Below are positions 12,101 through 29,297 of a DNA stretch of 64,000 bases, in pieces; the stretch's first letter is position 1, and every line of letters begins with the position of its first letter. Source of the stretch: Macrostomum lignano (taxonomy: Eukaryota); contig NIVC01002369.1 in the NCBI GenBank assembly GCA_002269645.1, positions 1 through 64,000 of the forward strand, written 5' to 3'. The notes under the pieces were generated by a model. That model searched no databases, was not told the origin of the DNA, and saw only the letters and a list, made by a program, of their open reading frames with translations. A program made the position numbers and the translations under genes.

Positions 12101-15100
12101 CGTCGATCAGCTCACCAACAATGAACGCGCCTGGCGCGCCTGGTACGAGGAGGAGACGCCAGAGCTGGCCGACCCGCCTGACGGATACGCTCGGCTCGGC
12201 GCCTTCCACCGCCTGCTGCTGGTCCGCTGCCTGGCCCCGGAGCGAACACCCGCGATGGCTGCCCGCTACGTCAGCGAGACGCTCGGCCCGAGCTTTGCCG
12301 ACGAGTCCGCCGACACGTCGGGAAGCGGCGGCGGAGGCGGCCTGGAGGCGCTGGCAGAGGAGGCTGGACAAAGGCGAGCTCCGCTGCTCTGCCTGCTGGC
12401 GCCAGGCTGCGGGGACCCCGTGACGGATGGGGTCGAGCGACTGGCGCGTCGGCAGGGCGTGCCGTGCTCGGTGGTGGCTCTGGGTCGCTGCGAGCAGCAG
12501 CAGCAGCAGCAGCAGCATCCGACGCATTCGCAGCAGCATCCGACGCATTCGCAGCAGCAGCAGCAGCCAAGCAACACTCTGGGCGAGGTCCTCGCCCGTC
12601 GGCTGCTGCACTCGGCGATCACCGAAGGTCGCTGGCTGGTGCTGCAGAATCTGCACCTGTGCAGCGCCGCCTTTCTCGACGAGCTCAGCGACACCCTGGC
12701 CGCTTGGTCGGCGGCCGCCGCAGCTGCTAGCGCCGCCTCAGGCAACAGCGGCGGCGGTGTCGGTGGCAGCGGCGCTGGGACTGGCGGCGCTTCATCCACA
12801 TCCGCCCGATGTCGGGCGAGACTTCCGCGGCAGCTGCGGCATCGGCGGCCGCCACGGCTGCCGGCGGCGACGTCGTCATAGCAACCGCGGCGGCGGCCTT
12901 GGCGTCGGCGGCGGCAGCCGTCAGCAGCGGCACCGGAGGCTCGGCAGGTGGCGGCGGCGGCGGGGTCGACGGTCAGCTGGAGGGCGGAGTCGTTAGCGGC
13001 GGCGGCATCGGCGGCTTCCGCTGCTGGCTGACCTCGGAGCCGCTTCAAGCTTCTGCGGCCGCCGGCTTTCCCGCCGCTCTGATTGGCGGCTCGCTGAAGT
13101 TCACCGCCGACCAGCCGGCCAGCGTCAGGGCCGGGCTGGCGCGCACCTTCGCCCAGATCGGCGCCGAGCAACTGGAGTCCAACGGGACGCCGCAGTGGCG
13201 CCCGATGCTGTTCTGCGCGGCATTTCTCCACGCCGCCGTCAACGCCCGCCTGCGCTTCGGCGCCGTCGGCTGGTCAGCGGAGCCTCGACTGTCGCCGACG
13301 GATCTCGGCGCCGCGCTGCAGGCCCTGCAGAATCACCTGGATGAGGTCGATGCTCGCCGTGGCGTCGCTTGGCCAGCGGTCCGACACATGATCGGCGAGG
13401 TCGCTTTCGGTGGACGATTCCTCGACGACTGGGACCGCCGCCTGCTGAGCGTGTACTGCCGCCTGTGGCTGACGGAGTCCCTGCTGACCGACAGCTTCCA
13501 GTTCGCTCGCGGCGGCTACCAGCTGCCGCGGTGTCGCAACGTCGACGAGTTTCGAGCCTTCGTTGAAGCGCTTCCTGCGATTGACACGCCGGAGACCTTC
13601 GGACTGCACGCCAATGCGGATGTTGGGTGAGCGGCTGCGTGTGCGCCCACTGACCCTCCCCTGACCTTCCACTGACCCTTCCCCAGACCTTGCACTGACC
13701 CTCCCCTGACCTTCCACTGACCCTCCTCTGACTTTTCACTGACCCTTCCCTGACCTTTCACTGACCCTTCCCCAGACCTTGCACTGTACTGACCCTTTCC
13801 CTAACCTTCCACTGACCCTCTCCTGATCTTCTTCTGACCCTCTCCTAATCTTCCTCTGACCCTTTCCCTGACCTTCCACTGACCCTTCCCCTGACCTTCC
13901 ACTGACCTTTACACTGACCCTCCCCTGATTTCCCACTGAACCATTCACTGAGCCACCTACCCATCTAGATGCAGAATCTGCCCTTGTACATCCTTGATGA
14001 TGCGTTAGTCATGCCCTCTTTACACCCTGTGTGAGCGTGTGCTTGCGTACGTAACTGTGTTTCGCTAGCCCCATGCAAGCTCACTAAAAACTTCCGTAAA
14101 CCCTTCCATCCTTCCAGCTGCCAGAGGGTCAGAGCGAATGCCATATTAGAGTCGGTTTGCCTGATGCAGCAGTATCCGCCAAGCCAGCGACTGTCGGGGC
14201 TGGCTGACAGGCGCTCCATCGCGGACATCAGCGAGGATGTGCTGGGAAAGCTGCCGGACGAGTTCGGACCCACAGAGGTAATCCAACACACTTTAACACT
14301 GCCGCAAATCCAGGCCACAGAGGCCTTCCATTCCATCAAAGTATCACCGATCTCATCAAAGTATCACCGATCCCATCAAAGTATCCCCGATCCCATCAAA
14401 GTATCATCGATCCCATCAAAGTATCACCGATCCCATCAAAGTGTCATCGATCCCATCAAAGTATCATCGATCCCATCAAAGTATCACCGATCCCATCAAA
14501 GTGTCATCGATCCCATCAAATAATCACCGATCCCATCCAAGTATCATCGATCCTATCAAAGAATCCCCGATCCCATCAAAGTATCATCGATCCCATCAAA
14601 GTATCCCCGATCTCATCAAAGTATCATTAATCTCATCAAAGTATCCCCGATCCCATCAAAGTATCATTAATCTCATCAAAGTATCATTGATCCCATCAAG
14701 CACCGACTATCCCAGCTGACGTCACTCCTCCAACATCCACATCCGCATTCCACATCCCAGATTCGCGACCGTCTCCGCAAGCTGGATAATCAGCAGCGCC
14801 CGCTGAACGTCTTCCTGCGCACCGAGCTCAACCGAATGCACCGTCTGCTAACCGCAGCCCGCGCCGATCTGGCCGCCTTGGCCGCCTCATCCGAGGACGT
14901 CATCGAAGCAGCCGAATTGGTGGACCTGCCGGACACTCTTCTGGACGTGCTGGAGGCCCTTCGCCAGCTCCGGGTGCCAACTCGATGGCTGCGACTCGCC
15001 TGGGAGGAGGAGTCGCCGTCGGAATCCGTTGAGTCGCCAGGTGGCCTCGCTGTCTGGCTGACGGACCTTCGCGAGCGTCACGCTCAGCTTCGCTCATGGC

Positions 15101-15935
15101 TGGTTGAGGGCCGGCCGCCTGCGGCGCACTGGCTGGCGGGCTACTTCAGGCCTGCGGCGTTTCTTGTCGCCCTTCGACAGGAGGCCGTCAGGGCGAGGCG
15201 CGGATGGTCGCTGGAGACGGTGCATCTCGCCAGCGATGTCACCCGGCTGTCTAAGTGAGTGCAGGAATTCTAAGACGGGGAATTCTAAGACGGGTAATTC
15301 TAAGACGGGGAATTCTAAGACGGGGAATTCTAAGACGGGGAATTCTAAGACGGGGAATTCTAAGACGGGAAATTCTAAGACGGGGAATTCTAAGACGGGG
15401 AATTCTAAGACGGGGAATTCTAAGACGGGGAATTCTAAGACGGGGAATTCTAAGACGGGGAATTCTAAAACGGGGAGTTCTAAGATGGGGAAGTCTAAGA
15501 CGGGGAATTCTATGACGGGGAGTTCTAAGACGGGGAATTATAAGACGGGGAATTCTAAGACGAACCCCTGTCCCCGACAGAGAGGAGGCCCACGCTGCAC
15601 CACCCGACGGCGCCTTCGTCCACGGTCTTGTCCTGGACGGCGCAGGCTGGGATCGCAGGAACAGCCGACTGACGGAGGCCGCCCCCAAGGCCGGGCCGGT
15701 GCAGCTGCCCCTGGTGCACCTGTTCGCCGTGTGCAGCAGCGGCGGCGGTGGAGCGGGCGGAGCTGGCGGAGGTTCGGGCGCGGGTTCAACGGGACTGTAC
15801 GAGTGCCCGGTGTACACCCGCTCTGAGCGGGGTCAGAAGCGTCAGCTGTGCTGCCTGCAGCTGCGCAGTCAGCGCGATCCGGAGCACTGGACGCTCAGAG
15901 GGGTTGCGGCTGTGCTCGGCGACGCTGCGAAATGA
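175..15935 (+). CDS. DNAH5: Axonemal dynein heavy chain, outer-arm gamma type (DNAH5/DNAH8-like), 5'-partial and divergent. Covers AAA1 (part) to AAA4, stalk/MTBD, AAA5, AAA6 and C-terminal domain. Exons: 175-363, 837-1152, 1289-1618, 1715-2073, 2518-2771, 3387-5135, 5260-5829, 6086-6667, 7012-7179, 9034-9207, 10092-10313, 10887-13626, 14118-14277, 14761-15254, 15581-15935
   Basis: Motifs in order: [157 protein letters not shown], then TGA at 15933. All listed junctions are GT-AG with consistent phases, given one-base frameshifts at ~911 and ~12806. Exons 7012-7179 and 9034-9207 are absent from the ORF track and were translated by hand. DNAH5 versus DNAH8 orthology cannot be resolved here. 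Confidence 0.93.
385..732 (-). mobile_element. tRNA-derived SINE with a conserved central domain, inside dynein intron 364-836
   Basis: Minus strand opens with a tRNA-like head (GGCGGCTGCAGCTTAGTGGTTAGAGCGTTGGACTCGCGATTG, A-box-like). It is followed by GTGTCCTTGAGCAGGACACCTAACTCTGCATTGCTTCAGTTCACCCAGCTGTAAAATGGGTGCC, which resembles the CORE/V/Meta-type SINE central domain. B-box degraded; 3' limit approximate. Confidence 0.65.
2161..2505. repeat. 30-bp intronic minisatellite (CCATGCGTGATGCCCTCCGATCCCTCCATT)n, ~11 copies
   Basis: Tandem copies fill dynein intron 2074-2517 and grade into the acceptor region. Confidence 0.95.
7400..7632 (-). mobile_element. Internally deleted Tc1/mariner remnant
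   Basis: Minus-strand [13 protein letters not shown]...[10 protein letters not shown] matches the Tc1 DDE motifs QDNAPxH and WPSxSPDL. Imperfect terminal inverted repeats (11/16 identity) with TA on both sides. Confidence 0.65.
9239..9995. repeat. 25-bp intronic minisatellite (GAATCGAGGGGCGCCTAAGTAGGAA-type)
   Basis: About 30 tandem units in dynein intron 9208-10091, homogeneous at the left end and more diverged to the right. Confidence 0.93.
10502..10825. repeat. 12-bp intronic minisatellite (CTGACCCTCCCA)n
   Basis: Tandem copies in dynein intron 10314-10886. Confidence 0.95.
13648..13950. repeat. Degenerate CTGACC(C)TTCC-based intronic minisatellite
   Basis: Repeating CTGACCCTCCCCTGACCTTCCA-like units in intron 13627-14117, related to the 10502-10825 unit. 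Confidence 0.85.
14330..14705. repeat. 20-bp intronic minisatellite (ATCCCATCAAAGTATCACCG)n
   Basis: Tandem copies in intron 14278-14760; the same unit recurs at 31645-31940. Confidence 0.95.
15262..15562. repeat. 15-bp intronic minisatellite (GAATTCTAAGACGGG)n, ~20 copies
   Basis: Fills almost all of intron 15255-15580. Confidence 0.95.
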
Positions 15936-17490: not shown

Positions 17491-18279
17491 TTTATTTTAG
17501 ATTTAATTTCAGCCAAGCAAATTAAATTTTATAAGCTACCAACAGACGTGCAACACGCAGACACGAAAGTCGAGTTAAGCATGCTTGCCGGATGCTCTGT
17601 TGCATACAAAAAATTTCCCGAACTGACTGGGTGTCCCCTCATGTCTCACCCGTCAGTCAGTTTCTGAATTTCTCAGCTGGTAAAGCAATTTACTTGGCCA
17701 GGAAATCTGCAATTTCATCGGCCACTCCCAATTCTCGCTTGTCGTTGTTGTTACGTAATCAAAATTTGCAAACTCGAAGTGAAAAGTAAACGCTGGAATT
17801 CCCTCGAGCAGCATCGGGTTATGAGAAAAAGCTGAGAGAGAGAGCTGTGGTATTAGGGGGGTCAGGGCGAGACTTGTTGTTGTTCAAGTGGCGCCCTTCT
17901 CTCTCTCTCTCTCTCTGCCCAGCTCGCATTAGTCTCCATCATTTTTGTCGAGTTTTGTTCGCGTCGTACAGCAAGAGTTTCGGAGTAATAATACTGCTAC
18001 AAACTACACCTAGAGATCTGTGCTTTTTTGCATTTTTTTAAGTTAAAATATATCTGATCATGGCAGCGCCAGAACCAATGAAAACTTATTGCACTGCTGA
18101 GGGAAGAGGTTGCTCGTAGGGGGAGGGTTATAGGCGGAGAGAGATTCACGCTTAGATGTAGACTGAGAGATTCACGCTTTGATGTAGACTGAGATTCTAA
18201 GCGTTAAGGAGTCAGATAGTGGATAATGAGAGATAAGAGGCGAGATGGGAACAGAGTGAGAGGAAGAGGGTAACAGAGG

Positions 18280-18757
18280 GAGAGAGGGAGAGAGGGGGAG
18301 AGAGAGGGGAGAGGGAGAGAGAGAGAGAGGGAGGAGGGAGAGAGGGAGGAGGGGAGAGGGAGAGGGAGAGAGGGAGAGAGGGGAGAGGGGAGAGGGAGAG
18401 AGGGAGAGAGGGAAGAGAGAGAGAGAGGGAGAGAGGGAGGAGGGAGAGAGAGAGGGAGGAGGGAGAGAGGGAGGAGGGGGAGAGGGGAGAGGGAGAGAGG
18501 GAGAGAGGGGGAGAGGGAGAGAGAGAGGGGGAGAGAGGGAGAGAGGGGGAGAGGGAGAGAGAGAGAGGGAGAGAGGGAGAGAGGGAGAGAGAGAGAGGGG
18601 GAGGAGGGAGAGAGGGAGGAGGGGAGAGGGGAGAGGGAGAGAGGGAGAGAGGGAGAGAGGGAGAGAGAGAGGAGGGAGAGAGGGAGGAGGGGGAGAGGGG
18701 AGAGGGAGAGAGGGAAAGAGGGGGAGAGGGAGAGAGGGAGAGAGAGAGAGAGGAGGG
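18280..18757. repeat. GA-rich low-complexity tract (GGGAGAGAG-type)
   Basis: Purine-only run; the same unit type occurs at 22410-22500. Confidence 0.95.
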
Positions 18758-18827
18758 CGCCTCCAATCCCGGGCACTGACACGGTAGAAAGTCAGAAAGG
18801 ACTGAAAAAAGTCAATTTAAATTGAGT

Positions 18828-18871
18828 AGCCGATACGAGCTATTTCGAAATTAAATTTCTTCGTCAGGGCT
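18828..18871 (-). ncRNA. Type I hammerhead ribozyme in the PLE 3' region
   Basis: Minus strand: AGCC-CUGACGA-A-GAAAU(UUA)AUUUC-GAAA-UAGCUCGUA-UC|GGCU. Stem I AGCC/GGCU, 5-bp stem II, stem III AUA/UAU, AUC cleavage triplet (cut after 18832). Confidence 0.8.
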
Positions 18872-19296: not shown

Positions 19297-21585
19297 CTAG
19301 TTGGCAGGATCGAGCCGACTATGAGAGAGCAGAGTTCGGAGGCTTCTCCCCTTGGTGTAGGCGGGCAGCACCGGGGTCTCGCAGTGGCGTATCACCCTGT
19401 CCTTCACTTTGGCAGCCAGGGCGTCGGAGGTCGCACAGTGGGGCAGGATCAGCGGGATGGCCGGTTTGTGCAGTATGCCGGCAAGTTCGTTGGCGCCGTG
19501 TGGAACATGAGTCCTCAGGACCTCGATAAACTTGGCCTCCTGACGCTGACGCCGCTCGTCAGCTCTGGGTCCTGTGCCATCGCGTGTCCAGATGCCGGTG
19601 AAGGCGAAGTTCGTCAGACTGTGGCCACCGCTGGTGAAGTGGCGCGCTACCGGAGTGTCGCGGGTGTGCCGGATGTCACCGATGTGCGCCAGCATGCGAC
19701 CACGGATGCTGTTGGCGGTCTCGCCGACGTAGACCGTGTGGTCGCACCGGCGGCAGAACACGGCATAGACGGCGTTCGTGGCGTTGCAGTCGATCCGCTG
19801 ACTGATGATGAGCTGGACTGTCGTGGCTGCTGATCCGGGGCAGACGGAGGCGAACCTGGCGTGCGCCTGGCAGCACTTGCAGAGTCGGGCCGAGTTGCAC
19901 GGCAGGAAGCCGAACTCCCACCGTCTGGTCGGGTAGAAGCCCAGCTCCGTCAGCACGTCGTACTTGATGGTGCGGAGGAAGCGCCGGCTGTAGCCTTGGT
20001 GCTGCACCAGATTCGACATCAGCCCGGTGCACGCTGCGTCGAAGTCGGCCATCCGGGAGCACCGCCAGGCGTACCTGAGGAGCTGGGACTTTACCACGCC
20101 CCGGAAAGTTCGCTTAGGATGGAAGGAGCCGCGGTGGATGAGGACTCGGCTGTCGGTGGGCTTGAAATATACCCTGGTTGCCAGGCTTTTGCTGTCGCCT
20201 TCGCGGTCCCAGAAGACGGTGGTGTCTAGGAAGTTCACCTCTGTGCTGCTGTAGCTCAGTTGAAGTCGGATGTTGGGGTCGAGGGCGTCCAGGTGTTGAT
20301 GGAACTGGACCAGCTCCGCCTCTGTGCCACGCCACACTCCAAAGACGTCGTCGATGTAGCGGAGCCACAGGCTGGGCTTCTGCGGGCTGGTCTCCAGGCC
20401 TCTCTGCTCCCAGTAGCCCATGTAGATGTTGCTGTAGCTGGGCGTGAAAGACTTCCCCATGGCAGTGCCTTTCACCTGCAGAAAGTACCTGCCGTCAAAC
20501 TCGAAGTCGTTGCGCTCCAGGTTCAGCTTGAGCAGGCTGAGTAGGCTGGCGTCTGGGCGCCGGCTGTGCGGGTGCTCCCTAAACGCTCTTCGCACGCACT
20601 CGAGGCCGGCCTCCGTCGGGATGTTGGTGTACAGGCTGGCGACGTCCATGGTGAACAGGAAGGACTCCTCGGACGCCGCACAGGCGATCCCGCGGATGGC
20701 GGCCTGGAAGTGGTCAGTGTCCCTGATGAAGCTGGGCAGCTGGATGACGATCGGCTGCAGGAAGCTGTCGATGAAGCGGCCGCTAGCGTAAGACTCGCTG
20801 TCCACATCAGACACGATGGGCCGGCCCGGAGGAATGTCGCCGAGCGGCCACGACTCGACGGGCTTGTGGATCTTCGGCAGGATGTAGAAGCACCGCGTGC
20901 GGAACCCCTCCTTCGGGCAGAAGGCGTTGAACTGGCGCCGATCGATGATCCTTCGGTCCAGCAGCGATCTGAAGACGCCGCGGATCATCTGGGCTGTGAA
21001 GCGGCTGATCGGTGCGCTCAGAGGTCGGTAAAACAGCGGGTCTTCCAGCTGACGCAGGCATTCACGGACATAGTCCTGCCGGTCCAGGATGACCAGCTGG
21101 CTGCCCTTGTCGGCCGGCTTGATGACGATGGACTTGTCTGCCCGCAGATCTCGCAGTGCCTTTGCCTCCGCCTGGCTGATGTTTGGAGCGTTCCTGCAGT
21201 CCCGGATGTTCTCCCTGACGTCGTCCAGCTCCGCCAGAGCGGCTTGAATTTCGGGCCGGAGGCGGCTCGGATCGATGCTGGCCGTTGGGCGGCGGGGAAG
21301 CGGCGGGCCGTCGTCCACCGTCAGTTCGCGCTTGAAACCGCGAGCCGCCGACACGGCCAGACGCTCGCCAAAGTCGCGGACGCCGGACGCCAGAGACTCC
21401 GCCGAGGTGCACCGAGGAGCCACTACGAAGGACTGGCCGCGCTCCAGCAGTTGCAGTTCAGTCGGTGCGAGAGCGCGGCTGGAGAGGTTCGTCACCCTCA
21501 GTTGGGGGGCCCATGGCTCGCCCCCGGCCCGCTCAGTTTTTTGGAAGGTCGCCCGCCGTCTCCAGGGCGACGGCGAACGCCCCAT
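19297..21585 (-). CDS. Penelope-like reverse transcriptase + Cys-rich linker + GIY-YIG endonuclease (uninterrupted)
   Basis: VTNLS...LLERGQSF N-terminal motif, GRPIVS, MDVASLYTNIP, QVKGTAMG, WLRYIDD (YIDD at 20347-20358), VNFLD, YFKPTD, PCNSARLCKCC linker, VYAVFCRRCDHTVYVGET...RMLAH...VARHF...E...GAN (GIY-YIG with CCHH). PLE homology begins near 21495; the track's ATG at 21585 may not be the real start. Confidence 0.95.
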   Translation of the reverse strand: MGRSPSPWRRRATFQKTERAGGEPWAPQLRVTNLSSRALAPTELQLLERGQSFVVAPRCTSAESLASGVRDFGERLAVSAARGFKRELTVDDGPPLPRRPTASIDPSRLRPEIQAALAELDDVRENIRDCRNAPNISQAEAKALRDLRADKSIVIKPADKGSQLVILDRQDYVRECLRQLEDPLFYRPLSAPISRFTAQMIRGVFRSLLDRRIIDRRQFNAFCPKEGFRTRCFYILPKIHKPVESWPLGDIPPGRPIVSDVDSESYASGRFIDSFLQPIVIQLPSFIRDTDHFQAAIRGIACAASEESFLFTMDVASLYTNIPTEAGLECVRRAFREHPHSRRPDASLLSLLKLNLERNDFEFDGRYFLQVKGTAMGKSFTPSYSNIYMGYWEQRGLETSPQKPSLWLRYIDDVFGVWRGTEAELVQFHQHLDALDPNIRLQLSYSSTEVNFLDTTVFWDREGDSKSLATRVYFKPTDSRVLIHRGSFHPKRTFRGVVKSQLLRYAWRCSRMADFDAACTGLMSNLVQHQGYSRRFLRTIKYDVLTELGFYPTRRWEFGFLPCNSARLCKCCQAHARFASVCPGSAATTVQLIISQRIDCNATNAVYAVFCRRCDHTVYVGETANSIRGRMLAHIGDIRHTRDTPVARHFTSGGHSLTNFAFTGIWTRDGTGPRADERRQRQEAKFIEVLRTHVPHGANELAGILHKPAIPLILPHCATSDALAAKVKDRVIRHCETPVLPAYTKGRSLRTLLSHSRLDPAN

Positions 21586-22237
21586 CGGCAGACTGTCGCT
21601 CCAGGCTGATCTGGTCCCGTCGGAATGCCAGGTCTTTGGTGTCCAGCGAGATCAGGCTGACAGACCGGTAGCTGCTCAGGAGCTGGTTCGTCTTGCGACA
21701 GTTATTCTTCTGGAGCGCCGGCGCATCGGGTGGGCACACGGTCTGCACCACCCAGATTGACGCACCGGGGAAAGCCTTCCTGATGTTGGTCAGGCTCATC
21801 TTCCAGAGCTTGGCGATGGAGAAGTCGAAGCTCTCACGGTGGAGGTCGTTGTTGCCGGCCCAGACGATGACGCGGCCCGTGTCGGGACTCGCATTCTCCA
21901 CCTTGCTGATGTTCTTCAGGTAGTCCAGCGTGAGGCCCGGGAAGCAGTGCACCTCCAGGTCTGGCGAGGCCAGCTTCACGAATTCCACGTTCTGGTCAGC
22001 GATCACCAGGGTGGGCTTCTGCTTTGACCTCAGCTTCCAGTGCTTCTTGGCTTTGTGGTGGTAGATGACTTTGTTCTCCCGTAAGCTTCTGGCAGTCTTC
22101 AACGGCTGCATGAGGCTACCGGGATCAGGAGAACCAGATGGGGGTCTCTTCCTGGTGGCCACCGGGGTTCCGGAGTCAGCGGCATCTTCACTTGTCCGGG
22201 CGGTGACAGTCTCTGGGACACCAGTAGACGTAGTCAT
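21533..22237 (-). CDS. PLE upstream ORF with a degenerate SGNH/GDSL-hydrolase-like domain
   Basis: First in-frame ATG at 22237; the frame stays open to 22537 but reads through a GA tract. Motifs LVIADQN (block I), HCFPG (block II), VIVWAGNND (block III) and DQISL (block V position) have SGNH spacing. Ends CCA AAA AAC TGA, overlapping the RT frame. Confidence 0.7.
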   Translation of the reverse strand: MTTSTGVPETVTARTSEDAADSGTPVATRKRPPSGSPDPGSLMQPLKTARSLRENKVIYHHKAKKHWKLRSKQKPTLVIADQNVEFVKLASPDLEVHCFPGLTLDYLKNISKVENASPDTGRVIVWAGNNDLHRESFDFSIAKLWKMSLTNIRKAFPGASIWVVQTVCPPDAPALQKNNCRKTNQLLSSYRSVSLISLDTKDLAFRRDQISLERQSADGAFAVALETAGDLPKN

Positions 22238-22409
22238 GGGGAGGGACACCTCCCTGTTTGTCGGAGTCTCAATTGAGGCACAGTTCCGTGTGGATGGCGC
22301 CGTAGAGTTCTCTTCTCGAGCTGACGATGATGACGAGGCCGGCGGCGCGGTCGCCGAAGAGGCCGCCAATGAACCCGCCGGCGCGGTCGCCCTCTTCCCT
22401 CGGAGAGAG

Positions 22410-22500
22410 GAAAAGAGGGGGGAGAGGGAGAGAGGGAGAGAGGGAGAGAGGGGAAGAGAGAGAGGGAGAGAGGGAGAGAGGGGGAGAAGGGGAGGGGATG
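22410..22500. repeat. GA-rich tract at the 5' side of the PLE
   Basis: GGGAGAGAG units as at 18280-18757. Confidence 0.9.
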
Positions 22501-23022: not shown

Positions 23023-23744
23023 TATTATACTAGTTTTAGACTTTAGATCTCGGCTACTGCATATAAGTTTTACCACACGCATGATGAATGCCCGTGTTTT
23101 TGTCTAAATAATTTTGCTGCTAGCTTAGGTAAGTATTACATTAGGTAAGTATACATTTAATCGTCTGTATATTTTTTCACTAATGCGAGATTAAAAGTGA
23201 ACTTTTCTTTGAGCTTGGCAAACATTAATAATTGATTAAGTCCACGCTCGGGATTAGGGGTATTTGCGTAAGAAAATCTGCTCTCCCGCACTTCCCCCTG
23301 CCCACCAACAGAATCGACAGGATCTGGGATATTAAATTTGCACGAGCCCAGCCTCCAGTCAGCTTCATCAGAGGGGGGGGGTGAGTCAATAGGTTTATTG
23401 CTGCAAAAATGTGTTGAGGAATTTCTCTGATGAGCTGGCTTGTTCCTCAGAAATATTCGATTAAATATGAATTCTTTTCTCCCTTTCTCTCGCCCTCTCC
23501 CTCTCTCACGTCTGCACTCTCCCCTGTCTACTCTCTCCCTTCTCACCTTTCTCCATGTCCCTCTTCTACCCATTTTCTTCCATCTTTTTCAGGCACTTCT
23601 TCCTGTCAATCTACGTACACACGTGCGTTTTTATAAACTTGTTATAACACTAATTTCTGAAAGCAGCACTTCTGTCGCATCTGTTAGAGAAATAGGATTG
23701 TTCATGAGGGGAATTGCAGAAAAAACGAAACAGTCAGCCCTCCA
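23023..23744. repeat. Direct repeat copy 1 (~720 bp), near-identical to 27214-27919
   Basis: Shared from TATTATACTAG to CAGCCCTCCA. I see 3 substitutions and a 16-nt duplication (TTAGGTAAGTATTACA) unique to this copy. Confidence 0.93.
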
Positions 23745-26545
23745 TGTCATGTCAAAAATTAAAGAGCCACCATGTCGAACATAAAAGAGCCACCATGTCA
23801 AACATTAAAGAGCCACCATGTCAGACATTAAAGAGCCACTATGTCAAACATAAAATAGCCACTATGTCAAACATTAAACAGCCACCATATCGAACACTAA
23901 AGAGCCACCATGTCAAACATATATGTGACTCCATGTCAAATATATACGTGACTCCATGTCACACATAAAAGAGCCACCATGTAAAACATATACACATGAC
24001 TACATAACAAACATTAAACAGCCATCATGTCGAACATTAAAGAGCCATCATGTCAAAAATTAAAGAGCCACCATGTCAAACATTAAAGACCCACCATGTC
24101 AAACATAAAAGAGCCACCATGAAAAGCATATACGTGACTCCATGCCAAATATATACGTGACTCCATGTCAAACACAGACGTGACTCCATGTGAAACACTA
24201 GAGAGCCACCATGTCAAACATTAAAGAGCCACGATGTCAAACATTTAAGAGCACCATGTTAAACATAAAGGAGCCACCATGTCGAACATTAAAGAGCCAC
24301 CATTTCAAACATTAAAGAGCCATCATTACATTAAGGTGCCACCAGGTCAAACATTAAAGAGCCACCATGTCAAACATTAAAGAGCCACCATGTCGAACAT
24401 TAAAGAGCCATCATGTCAAACATAAAAGAGCCACTATGTCAAACAATAAAGGGACACCATGTCAGACATTAAAAAAAACCCGAATCAAACATAAGAGAGC
24501 CACCATGTAGAACATTAAGGAGCCACCATGTCAAACATAGAAGAGCCACCATGTCAAACATAAAACAGCCACCATGTCAAACATAAAAGAGCCACCATGT
24601 CAAACATAAAAGAGCCATCATGTCAAACATATATGTGACTCCATGTCAAATATATACGTGACTCCATGTCACACATAAAAGAGCCACCATGTAAAACATA
24701 TACACATGACTACATAACAAACATTAAACAGCCATCATGTCGAACATTAAAGAGCCATCATGTCAAAAATTAAAGAGCCACCATGTCAAACATTAAAGAC
24801 CCACCATGTCAAACATAAAAGAGCCACCATGAAAAGCATATACGTGACTCCATGCCAAATATATACGTGACTCCATGTCAAACACAGACGTGACTCCATG
24901 TGAAACACTAGAGAGCCACCATGTCAAACATTAAAGAGCCACGATGTCAAACATTTAAGAGCACCATGTTAAACATAAAGGAGCCACCATGTCGAACATT
25001 AAAGAGCCACCATTTCAAACATTAAAGAGCCATCATTACATTAAGGTGCCACCAGGTCAAACATTAAAGAGCCACCATGTCAAACATTAAAGAGCCACCA
25101 TGTCGAACATTAAAGAGCCATCATGTCAAACATAAAAGAGCCACTATGTCAAACAATAAAGGGACACCATGTCAGACATTAAAAAAAACCCGAATCAAAC
25201 ATAAGAGAGCCACCATGTAGAACATTAAAGAGCCACCATGTCAAACATAGAAGAGCCACCATGTCAAACATAAAACAGCCACCATGTCAAACATAAAAGA
25301 GCCACCATGTCAAATATAAAAGAGCCATCATGTCAAACATAAAGGAGCCACCATGTCAATCAAAAAAGAGCCACCATGTCAAACTTAAAACAGCCACCAT
25401 GTCAAACATAAAGGAGCCACCATGTCAAACATTAAAGAGCCGCAATGTCAAACATTGAAGAGCCATCATGTCAAACATTGAAGAGCCACCATGTCAAACA
25501 TTAAAGAGCCACCATGTCGAACATTAAAGAGCCACCATGTCCAACATATATGTGACTCCATGTCAAACATTATAGAGCCAGCATGTCAAACATTAAAGTG
25601 CTACCATGTCAAACATAGAAGAGCCACCATGTCGAACAATAACGAGTCACCATGTCAAGTATATTCGTGACTCCATGTCAAACATAAAAGAGCTACCATG
25701 AAGAACATTAAAGAGCCACCACGTAAAACATTAAAGAGCCACCATGTCAAACATAAAAGAGCCATCATGTCAAACATAAAGGAGCCACCATGTCAATCAA
25801 AAAAGAGCCACCATGTCAAACATAAAGGAGCCACCATGTCAAACATTAAAGAGCCGCAATGTCAAACATTAAAGAGCCATCATGTCGAACAATAAAGAGC
25901 CACCATGTCTAACATTAAAGAGCCACCATGTCGAACATTAAAGAGCCACCATGTCTAACATTAAAAAGCCACCTTTTTGAACATAAAAGAGCAACCAATG
26001 TCGAACATTAAAGAACCACTATGTCCAACATAAAAGAGCCACCATGTCAAACATAAAAGAGCCATCATGTCAAACATTAAAGAGCCACCATTTCGAACAT
26101 TAAAGAGCCACCATGTCAAACAGTAAAGAGCCACCATGTCAAGCAAAAAAGAGCCACCATGTCCAACATAAAAGAGCCACCATGTCAAACATTAAAAGAG
26201 CCGCAATGTCAAACATTAAAGAGCCATCATGTCTAACATTAAAGAGCCACCATGTCGAACATTAAAGAGCCACCATGTCTAACATAAAGAGCCACCATTT
26301 CAAACATAAAAGAGCCACCATGTCAAAAATTAAAGAGCCATAATGTCAAACAGTAAAACGCCACCATGTCAAACAATAAAGAGACACCATGTCAGACATT
26401 AAAAAAACCCTGAATCAAACATAAGAGAGCCACCATGTAGAACATAAAAGAGCCACCATGTCAAACATTAAAGAGCCACCATGTCAAACATTAAAAAGCC
26501 ACCATGTCAAACATTAAAGAGCCACCATGTCAAACATAAAATTTA
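23745..26545. repeat. 23-bp satellite (AAAGAGCCACCATGTCAAACATT)n, ~2.8 kb, with a 710-bp higher-order duplication
   Basis: Tandem units throughout; the block starting at 23911 is repeated starting at 24621. Confidence 0.96.
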
Positions 26546-27213: not shown

Positions 27214-27919
27214 TATTATACTAGTTTTAGACTTTAGATCTCGGCTACTGCATATAAGTTTTACCACACGCATGATGAATGCCCGTGTTTTTGTCTAAAT
27301 AATTTTGCTGCTAGCTTAGGTAAGTATACATTTAATCGTCTGTATATTTTTTCACTAATGCGAGATTAAAAGTGAACTTTTCTTTGAGCTTGGCAAACAA
27401 TAATAATTGATTAAGTCCACGCTCGGGATTAGGGGTATTTGCGTAAGAAAATCTGCTCTCCCGCACTTCCCCCTGTCCACCAACAGAATCGACAGGATCT
27501 GGGATATTAAATTTGCACGAGCCCAGCCTCCAGTCAGCTTCATCAGAGGGGGGGGGTGAGTCAATAGATTTATTGCTGCAAAAATGTGTTGAGGAATTTC
27601 TCTGATGAGCTGGCTTGTTCCTCAGAAATATTCGATTAAATATGAATTCTTTTCTCCCTTTCTCTCGCCCTCTCCCTCTCTCACGTCTGCACTCTCCCCT
27701 GTCTACTCTCTCCCTTCTCACCTTTCTCCATGTCCCTCTTCTACCCATTTTCTTCCATCTTTTTCAGGCACTTCTTCCTGTCAATCTACGTACACACGTG
27801 CGTTTTTATAAACTTGTTATAACACTAATTTCTGAAAGCAGCACTTCTGTCGCATCTGTTAGAGAAATAGGATTGTTCATGAGGGGAATTGCAGAAAAAA
27901 CGAAACAGTCAGCCCTCCA
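27214..27919. repeat. Direct repeat copy 2 (~706 bp)
   Basis: Matches 23023-23744; continues into unique sequence upstream of the protocadherin. Confidence 0.93.
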
Positions 27920-29297
27920 GACGCACTGAATTGTGCGAAAATAAGACTTGGGGCTTGAGCCTGACACAGTTCTTGCTAAAATTGACAAATTCTGGTTAAA
28001 AAAATTTACCGTTGGACTGTTGGAAAAATGAGGAAGAGAATGATGGAGCAGATGCAGGACTGGAGCCCGGACCTGCCCGCATCGCACACGGGCTGAAAGC
28101 TGAACTCAGCCTGGTAGGAGGACGGTGTAACACGGGGAATAGAAAAAAAGAAGAGGGGAGAAAGAGGGGTCCGCAAGTTGTCAATCTTTTTAGTGGGATT
28201 GAAAAAAATTGCTCAGTGAGGAGTGGGGATCAGCTTGAGCTAAAGTGGTCGGGGGGAGGCCGCGGGCACAGCGCAGATGCAGTAATATTGTTCAGCATTT
28301 CCTGCCCGACCGACTCCGCCCTCGCCACCACTCAGCTTCCAAATCTTCGCTCCTTCTATTTTGCTTTTGCTAGCGACCTGGAGAGAGTGGATCGCTTTAG
28401 CTAGAGAGATGGGCTTTTGAAGTTGCTAATCGCATGGGCTTTGAGCAAGCTAACCATGCCTATGCTTTTTTGATTAATAAAAGCTATAATGATGGCTGGA
28501 GTGAGCAAAAACGAGCTGTCTCCTGGGTCCGCTGCCGTCTCGACTTTCGCAACGTCGCAAAGGTTCTTTCTTGTACACGCTGCATCTAATAATGACCAAG
28601 TTCCATTGTTTGTGTTCCCCTAATGTCTTGTGTCTTTGGCGAGCATTTACCCGATTAAAGATAAATATGAAATTATTGCACCGTTGAGCAAATACTGCAC
28701 AATCAGAAACCGCAGGTAAATTGTGCTCCAAACTCACGAAAATCATAAGAGCAAGTGACTTGCAGCAATTGGCAGTGATCACTTATAGTGTCTCTCTCGT
28801 GCTTCTCCGCTCGTCTGTGTACACAAATGCAGGTCTAGCCTGAGCAGGGTTTGAGCAGTTTTAGAGACACCCGCCGTTGCCGGACTCTGAAGGTGTCTGT
28901 CAGTTGGTTGAGTTTTATCTCGGAGTGTTTGTGTTTCTGTCTTGGCCCGGCATGGCTGCTAAATGGGGTGACTCTGGCTGCTCGCGCGAGATCAGCTGAG
29001 CAAACAGGTTGGGAGAAAACTCTGACCAAGTCGCTCCTAAAACCAGTTTTGAAATGAACTTCGTGTGGCATAGGCGCGAATGTTTAACTGGTTGGTTAAC
29101 TTACCGAAAGTCAAGGCGACAGGCAACTATGCATGTTTGTACCAAGAACTACTTTACTACTTAATGATCGAGAGAGTCGAGCTTCGATACTTTTGTCATG
29201 AGCCGATTTCAGAAGGTTTTCTACCTCAAATTTCACCCTCTCGAACGCGCCCCAACAATCGCAGGTAATTTTCTGCCAAATTCAACCGAGCCAAACA

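Follow-up and report, generated by a model that had tools for sequence, protein, structure and literature searches.

The junction between the two open reading frames (ORFs) of a Penelope-like element (PLE) from Macrostomum lignano very probably holds a real -1 frameshift signal that is widely conserved at the family level and was encountered here in a dead copy; a ribosomal slip at this signal would fuse ORF1 to the reverse transcriptase (RT) and endonuclease (EN). Judged by its sequence motifs, the element is a two-ORF, endonuclease-bearing, Neptune-like PLE. The copy in question occupies the minus strand of the analyzed DNA, a 64,000-nt stretch of contig NIVC01002369.1 (the window), and its features are collected in Table 1. 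On that strand the junction reads CCA AAA AAC TGA. The original prediction that an in-phase A AAA AAC directly precedes the ORF1 stop codon was exact in its coordinates, and A AAA AAC TGA was found at all 30 loci of this family taken from the genome of the window (G000). Downstream of the TGA lie a G5 run (21525-21521) and a C6 run (21509-21504). ORF1 is open from 22540 to 21533 and the RT frame from 21651 to 19297, which in the assembly places the RT at +1 relative to ORF1. It had been stated that the assembled -1 frame closes after 12 codons and that the RT lies one base further off; this was borne out, the 12-codon closure being common to copies with C6. No RT would be made from the window copy, since it lacks its 5' part as well as one C.

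Table 1. Features of the element copy and its surroundings in the window
Feature	Position	Strand	Basis
Slippery heptamer A AAA AAC, in phase	21536..21542	-	Unchanged in 30/30 loci
ORF1 stop codon TGA, abutting the heptamer	21533..21535	-	Sequence; copies in the genome
G5...C-run segment, hairpin possible; most copies have C7 where the window has C6	21504..21525	-	Folding; copy comparison
ORF1 3' remnant; 5' pseudo-LTR (pLTR) and ca. 420 N-terminal codons missing	21533..22391	-	Match to full copies starts at 22391
SGNH/GDSL-hydrolase-like C-terminal domain of ORF1	21536..22036	-	Pfam PF13472, E 7e-4 (below cut-off); Foldseek
RT-thumb-linker-GIY-YIG ORF, starting at conserved V-x-N-L-S, no ATG before the motif	19297..21495	-	Motifs; Pfam families of homologues
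C-x5-C-x-x-C linker Zn finger ahead of GIY-YIG (Neptune/Nematis trait)	19870..19899	-	Sequence; definition in the available part of PMC8557442
3' pLTR	18725..18870	-	Full copies carry 18865-18725 upstream of ORF1 as well
CT-rich microsatellite flank, also at ca. 22400-22500	18260..18750	-	Sequence; copy comparison

Conservation of the signal was examined in metagenomes. The best 78 of 400 confirmed loci were retained; nine had no usable RT N-terminus, leaving 69 that could be assessed. Among these (drawn from the best 78 of 400), 56/69 had an ORF of at least 100 aa ending just upstream of the RT in the -1 layout. Such ORFs were often 450-850 aa long and often ended in an SGNH-like domain. The remaining 13/69 were cut by contig ends, broken, or single-ORF, and a +1-layout ORF of more than 120 aa occurred at none of the 69 loci. 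The 56 loci with a -1 ORF1 were grouped into 44 lineages at 60% identity, which share ancestry, so that the counts do not represent independent events. In this sample from the best 78 of 400 loci, a strict heptamer directly preceded the stop codon (0 codons) in 24/44 lineages, compared to 0.15 expected. The heptamer and stop were to be sought in homologues as a check on the original prediction, and they proved to be kept across families and organisms: a strict heptamer fell within two codons of the stop in 33/44 lineages (0.44 expected) and within 20 codons in 38/44 (2.95 expected). The background rate in related ORF1 bodies was 0.0022 in-phase strict heptamers per codon, and out-of-phase controls in the same 44 lineages gave 0 directly before the stop and 1 within two codons. 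The motif is present at the end of ORF1 far above chance.

These headline counts refer to the strict heptamer set; a relaxed set includes G TTA AAC, which was added after inspection of the data. With the relaxed set, the 44 lineages comprised TTTAAAC (24), GTTAAAC (5), TTTTTTA (5), AAAAAAC (4), TTTAAAT (2), three types seen once each, and one lineage with none (L113), which counts against the signal. Where ORF1 terminates in L-N, the leucine codon was TTA in 32/35 cases, compared to 11/102 L-N pairs in ORF1 bodies, and the encoded amino acids change along with the heptamer type. These two observations indicate that selection at the heptamer acts on the DNA, not on the protein.

A set of 50 sites was assembled from the 43 metagenome lineages with a relaxed heptamer and seven sites from G000. 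A stop codon immediately followed the heptamer at 33/50 sites (the heptamer nearest the stop was chosen, which favors this count), and the next base was T at 41/50. The -1 frame opened at least 600 aa at 44/50 sites, whereas an ATG preceded the conserved NLS motif of the RT at 5/50 only. A rival account is that the RT is made from its own start by splicing, trans-splicing, or reinitiation, with the heptamer being incidental; the junction does hold the sequence GCCATGG, and introns are possible in PLEs according to the available part of PMC4209133. This account is improbable. The ATG of GCCATGG is in the RT frame in 2/29 genomic copies (those with C8), but it is out of frame in copies with C7 and is replaced by GTG in three copies. 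Across the 50 sites, the first Met has a median position 103 aa past the shift site, compared to 17 for the conserved NLS. No splice joints were seen in short-read contigs of seven runs (the marking of some of them as RNA is a guess), and in 20 of the 33 cases with an adjacent stop, that stop is TAA or TGA and so offers no AG acceptor.

Layout, conservation, and the missing RT start thus all speak for the gag-pol-like expression that had been proposed for this class of elements, usually called single-ORF, with frameshifting as the inferred route. Because the heptamer is conserved across lineages and the RT mostly has no ATG ahead of its conserved start, two-ORF Neptune-like Penelope elements likely rely on gag-pol-like -1 frameshifting as a rule. 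In canonical -1 frameshifting, an in-phase, conserved X XXY YYZ is accompanied by a downstream ORF in the -1 frame; the former is present here, and the latter is found in the majority of the family but not in the window copy.

The phase of the junction was compared among copies in G000. There were 38 matches, of which 30 were taken as loci and 29 span the junction. The layout was -1 in 15 copies, that of the window in 10, and in frame behind the stop codon in 4; hence 14/29 assembled copies, the window among them, are not in the -1 layout, which counts against the signal. The A run was unchanged in 29/29 aligned copies and the G5 run in 28/29. Of the two single-base insertions that had been predicted to restore the -1 layout, only that of a C was realized (C7 is the majority form); an extra G in G5 was not. 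The major short-read contig carried the extra base (C7) in all seven distinct runs (4/4 plus 4/4, with one run shared). An A5 consensus, equivalent to a single fused ORF, had been named as the outcome contrary to the prediction; no copy had A5, nor does the element display the one ORF with its own start that characterizes a canonical single-ORF EN+ PLE. A minor C6 contig was present in run X9 (depth of 24, compared to 231), and the two copies closest to the window copy likewise have short C runs. On these grounds, the C6 of the window copy may be real decay rather than error. Together with the 10 copies in the window phase, the same observations could be cited for the C6 layout as the working form, read by way of a +1 or -2 shift. 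We consider this very unlikely: in a control, the C7 run inside ORF1 was one C short in 9/26 readable copies and had no indel in short-read contigs, which marks such runs as unstable or mis-assembled, the 69 metagenome loci yielded no long ORF in a +1 layout, and the window copy is truncated.

Further families in G000 were identified by protein searches, and 60 places were examined. Their RTs are 36-46% identical to that of the window family, and their ORF1s are ca. 27% identical or less. The junction of family B reads CAA AAA AAC TAG, with the modal -1 length in 8/13 copies (one of these with a broken heptamer); that of family C reads CAA AAA AAC TTG TAG (modal -1 layout in 15/18), and that of family G reads ACT TTA AAC TAG, i.e. 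T TTA AAC (17/17). Two single copies, L050 and L067, have A AAA AAC TAA. The RT is in the -1 frame in each of these families and in both single copies. Family E/F is decayed: two copies have a substituted heptamer and two are one A short, and none of the four combines a perfect in-phase heptamer with the -1 layout, which counts against the signal.

It could also be supposed that the polymerase, not the ribosome, brings about the fusion by slipping on the A run and giving RNA with an extra base; families A, B, C, H, and I do have runs of 6-7 A. There is very little to recommend this, as TTTAAAC, the commonest heptamer, lacks a long run, and the short-read contigs that were examined had no indels in the A run. 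Least probable is that assembly error or decay has split what was one ORF, a reading that could appeal to the description of canonical EN+ PLEs as single-ORF (PMC8557442, available part) and to one copy each of families B (L037) and C (L068) that appear fused through shorter A runs, but that was already refuted by an A run and TGA unchanged in 30/30 loci, by concurring short-read contigs, and by the same layout in 44 further lineages.

The GC-rich segment downstream of the window junction had been proposed to be structure-prone. It is GC-rich, but a role as a conserved stimulator found no support, with neither excess folding nor a conserved pseudoknot. The segment folded no better than shuffled sequences (z = -0.55), and the same segment from a C7 copy gave z = +0.42. 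A conserved 3' hairpin was not evident at the 50 sites: the mean z at +5 to +64 was -0.18, compared to -0.24 to +0.04 in six flanking windows, and many of the downstream regions barely fold. Simple H-type pseudoknots were sought in a crude scan with approximate stacking energies; their mean energy over the 50 sites was -5.25, compared to -5.65 for shuffled sequences, and p<=0.12 was reached at 6/50 sites, compared to 7 and 8 in control windows.

A_AAA_AAC and U_UUA_AAC rank among the most shift-prone heptamers (PMC5009743, available part). In the proposed mechanism, ribosomes would slip back by one base on A AAA AAC through tandem tRNA slippage and so bypass the adjacent stop codon, yielding an ORF1-RT-endonuclease fusion as a minor product. 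Most ribosomes would terminate and release the ORF1 protein while a minority would shift, giving a gag-pol-like ratio. As no conserved 3' structure was detected, the pause might arise, at least in part, from the stop codon itself. We put forward as a tentative idea, with the odds somewhat against it, that a large branch of EN+ PLEs performs -1 frameshifting without a 3' pseudoknot, the heptamer being set against the ORF1 stop and both tRNAs slipping while termination is pending. Alternatively, stimulators may be long-range or protein-bound, or low-level slippage may be unstimulated. If the idea is correct, animal cells would possess a -1 signal that is widespread, structure-free, and termination-coupled. 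The frameshift at the junction as such would, for one large branch, shift the picture of EN+ PLEs from single-ORF to gag-pol-like, with the esterase-domain ORF1 protein produced in excess over RT. It would also explain why RT genes have been annotated without a start and ORF1 overlooked. The ca. 50 natural -1 sites, with heptamers of the coronavirus/retrovirus type and seemingly without 3' structure, would make the role of the adjacent stop testable in reporters.

For PLEs, a figure legend (Fig. 1 of PMC8557442, available part) mentions that a frameshift with a pseudoknot can set ORF1 apart. The two cases share a proposed frameshift between ORF1 and a PLE RT; here, however, the element has an endonuclease, is non-telomeric, and has an ORF1 that ends in an SGNH domain, the heptamers are A AAA AAC or U UUA AAC, and a pseudoknot was not detected. 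PLEs with an ORF1 frameshifted in that way are probably the rotifer Athena/Terminon elements. With retroviral and LTR-retrotransposon gag-pol (PMC5009743, available part), the element shares an in-phase heptamer ending ORF1 and an enzyme ORF in the -1 frame with no separate start. It differs in having no LTR, Gag, protease, or integrase, in that no conserved 3' structure was found, and in that the stop usually abuts the heptamer. Esterases have been described in Neptune-like or Penelope elements, with no frameshift in the relevant passages (PMC5408684 and PMC3905857), and esterase-bearing Neptune-clade EN+ PLEs are reported from fish, molluscs, and others (PMC5408684, PMC3905857, and PMC8557442, available parts). 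Thus, esterase-bearing Neptune elements and, from the legend in PMC8557442, a frameshifted PLE ORF1 have already been mentioned, whereas the available parts of the published accounts of Neptune EN+ PLEs do not describe a slippery heptamer at the joint between the esterase ORF and the RT. The first 300,000 characters of PMC5009743 make no mention of 'Penelope', and the available parts of PMC3846280, PMC6431247, PMC5718144, and PMC4209133 hold nothing on programmed shifts in PLEs. No paper that links Penelope elements to a slippery site, or to programmed frameshifting and an ORF1, came up in the literature search; an earlier description, for instance in Repbase reports, is possible.

The assignment to Neptune-like EN+ PLEs is based on several features. 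Like Neptune-clade elements, the family has an RT, a linker Zn finger, a C-terminal GIY-YIG domain, a pLTR with a putative hammerhead-like core, and an SGNH esterase-like domain upstream of the RT. The window ORF contains the PLE RT motifs and a GIY-YIG with its CCHH motif (VYAVFCRRC...YVG...H...H). Its homologues carry RT and GIY-YIG Pfam accessions, although no RT match resulted when the window ORF itself was scanned against Pfam; the closest named match is an M. lignano gene model (82% over 49% of the query). The linker Zn finger conforms to the CX2-5CxxC of the Neptune clade, and by eye, its spacing is nearer to the Neptune than to the Nematis rows in the text of Fig. S2 of PMC8557442 (available part). 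The pLTRs are present in full copies, and the window copy retains the 3' one only. A hammerhead-like core, CTGACGA...GAAA, was located by eye at 18870-18829 (minus strand); it was missed by Rfam, a pattern search, and MFE folding, and Rfam returned nothing real over 17-24 kb of the window. Also by eye, this core has seven extra bases that would give a helix III with three pairs and a loop, whereas in the full-length copy L169 the core takes the minimal palindromic form known from PLEs. The CT microsatellite is likely the insertion target.

In full-length copies, ORF1 lies behind the 5' pLTR and measures ca. 700 aa from the first Met (699-704 aa in L169, L170, and L171); in L169, a 704-aa ORF1 is accompanied by a 748-aa -1 frame. 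Between 22391 and 19310, the sole indel between the window copy and L169 is one C. The model of the ORF1 C-terminal domain had a pLDDT of 72, and its top Foldseek matches were SGNH hydrolases (best E 5e-6). The window ORF1 has the SGNH hydrolase fold but not the catalytic Ser, as ADQN replaces GDSN, and D-x-x-H is absent; the domain is probably catalytically dead. Unlike in esterase-bearing Neptune elements, the catalytic motifs are degenerate in the M. lignano families.

Several further observations were made. Neither SGNH catalytic motif was intact at any of the seven G000 sites, and with a simple pattern, both were matched in 21/43 metagenome ORF1s; at the G000 sites, esterase activity would appear to have been lost and the frameshift site kept. 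The ORF1s of L169 and L170 consist of a conserved N-terminal domain, a long, variable Ala/Ser/Thr/Pro repeat, and the SGNH domain, and the N-terminal domain matches a profile of the metagenome ORF1s (E 3e-17). Homology between the ORF1 N-terminus and the N-terminus of single-ORF relatives was unsupported (best E 0.9). In an RT tree of 82 sequences, which had no named Neptune/Nematis references, L132, L154, L162, L163, L164, L165, and L168 fell into a single clade (support 0.999), separate from the two-ORF elements. Six of these (L163 was not assessable) have an in-frame extension or an ATG upstream of the RT and lack a -1 ORF1; the linker Zn finger was seen in three of the seven. Viral contigs contained no relative of the element. 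One PLE RT homologue, P0074, is labelled as a hypothetical protein of Epulonipiscioides/Epulopiscium bacteria and is likely host DNA in those assemblies. Family C also forms head-to-tail tandem arrays with a period of ca. 4502 bp (G000:C29:1361434-1376387; also C1095 and C668), and in L065 and L066, the RT N-terminus is separated from the RT core by an additional ca. 1.7-1.9 kb.

Elsewhere in the window, two ORFs at 14671-15935 (plus strand) bear a possible resemblance to the C-terminal end of a dynein heavy chain; minisatellites with 15-nt and 20-nt units lie close by. A duplicated segment of ca. 600 bp (23157-23784 and 27332-27929) flanks a 23-nt minisatellite region.
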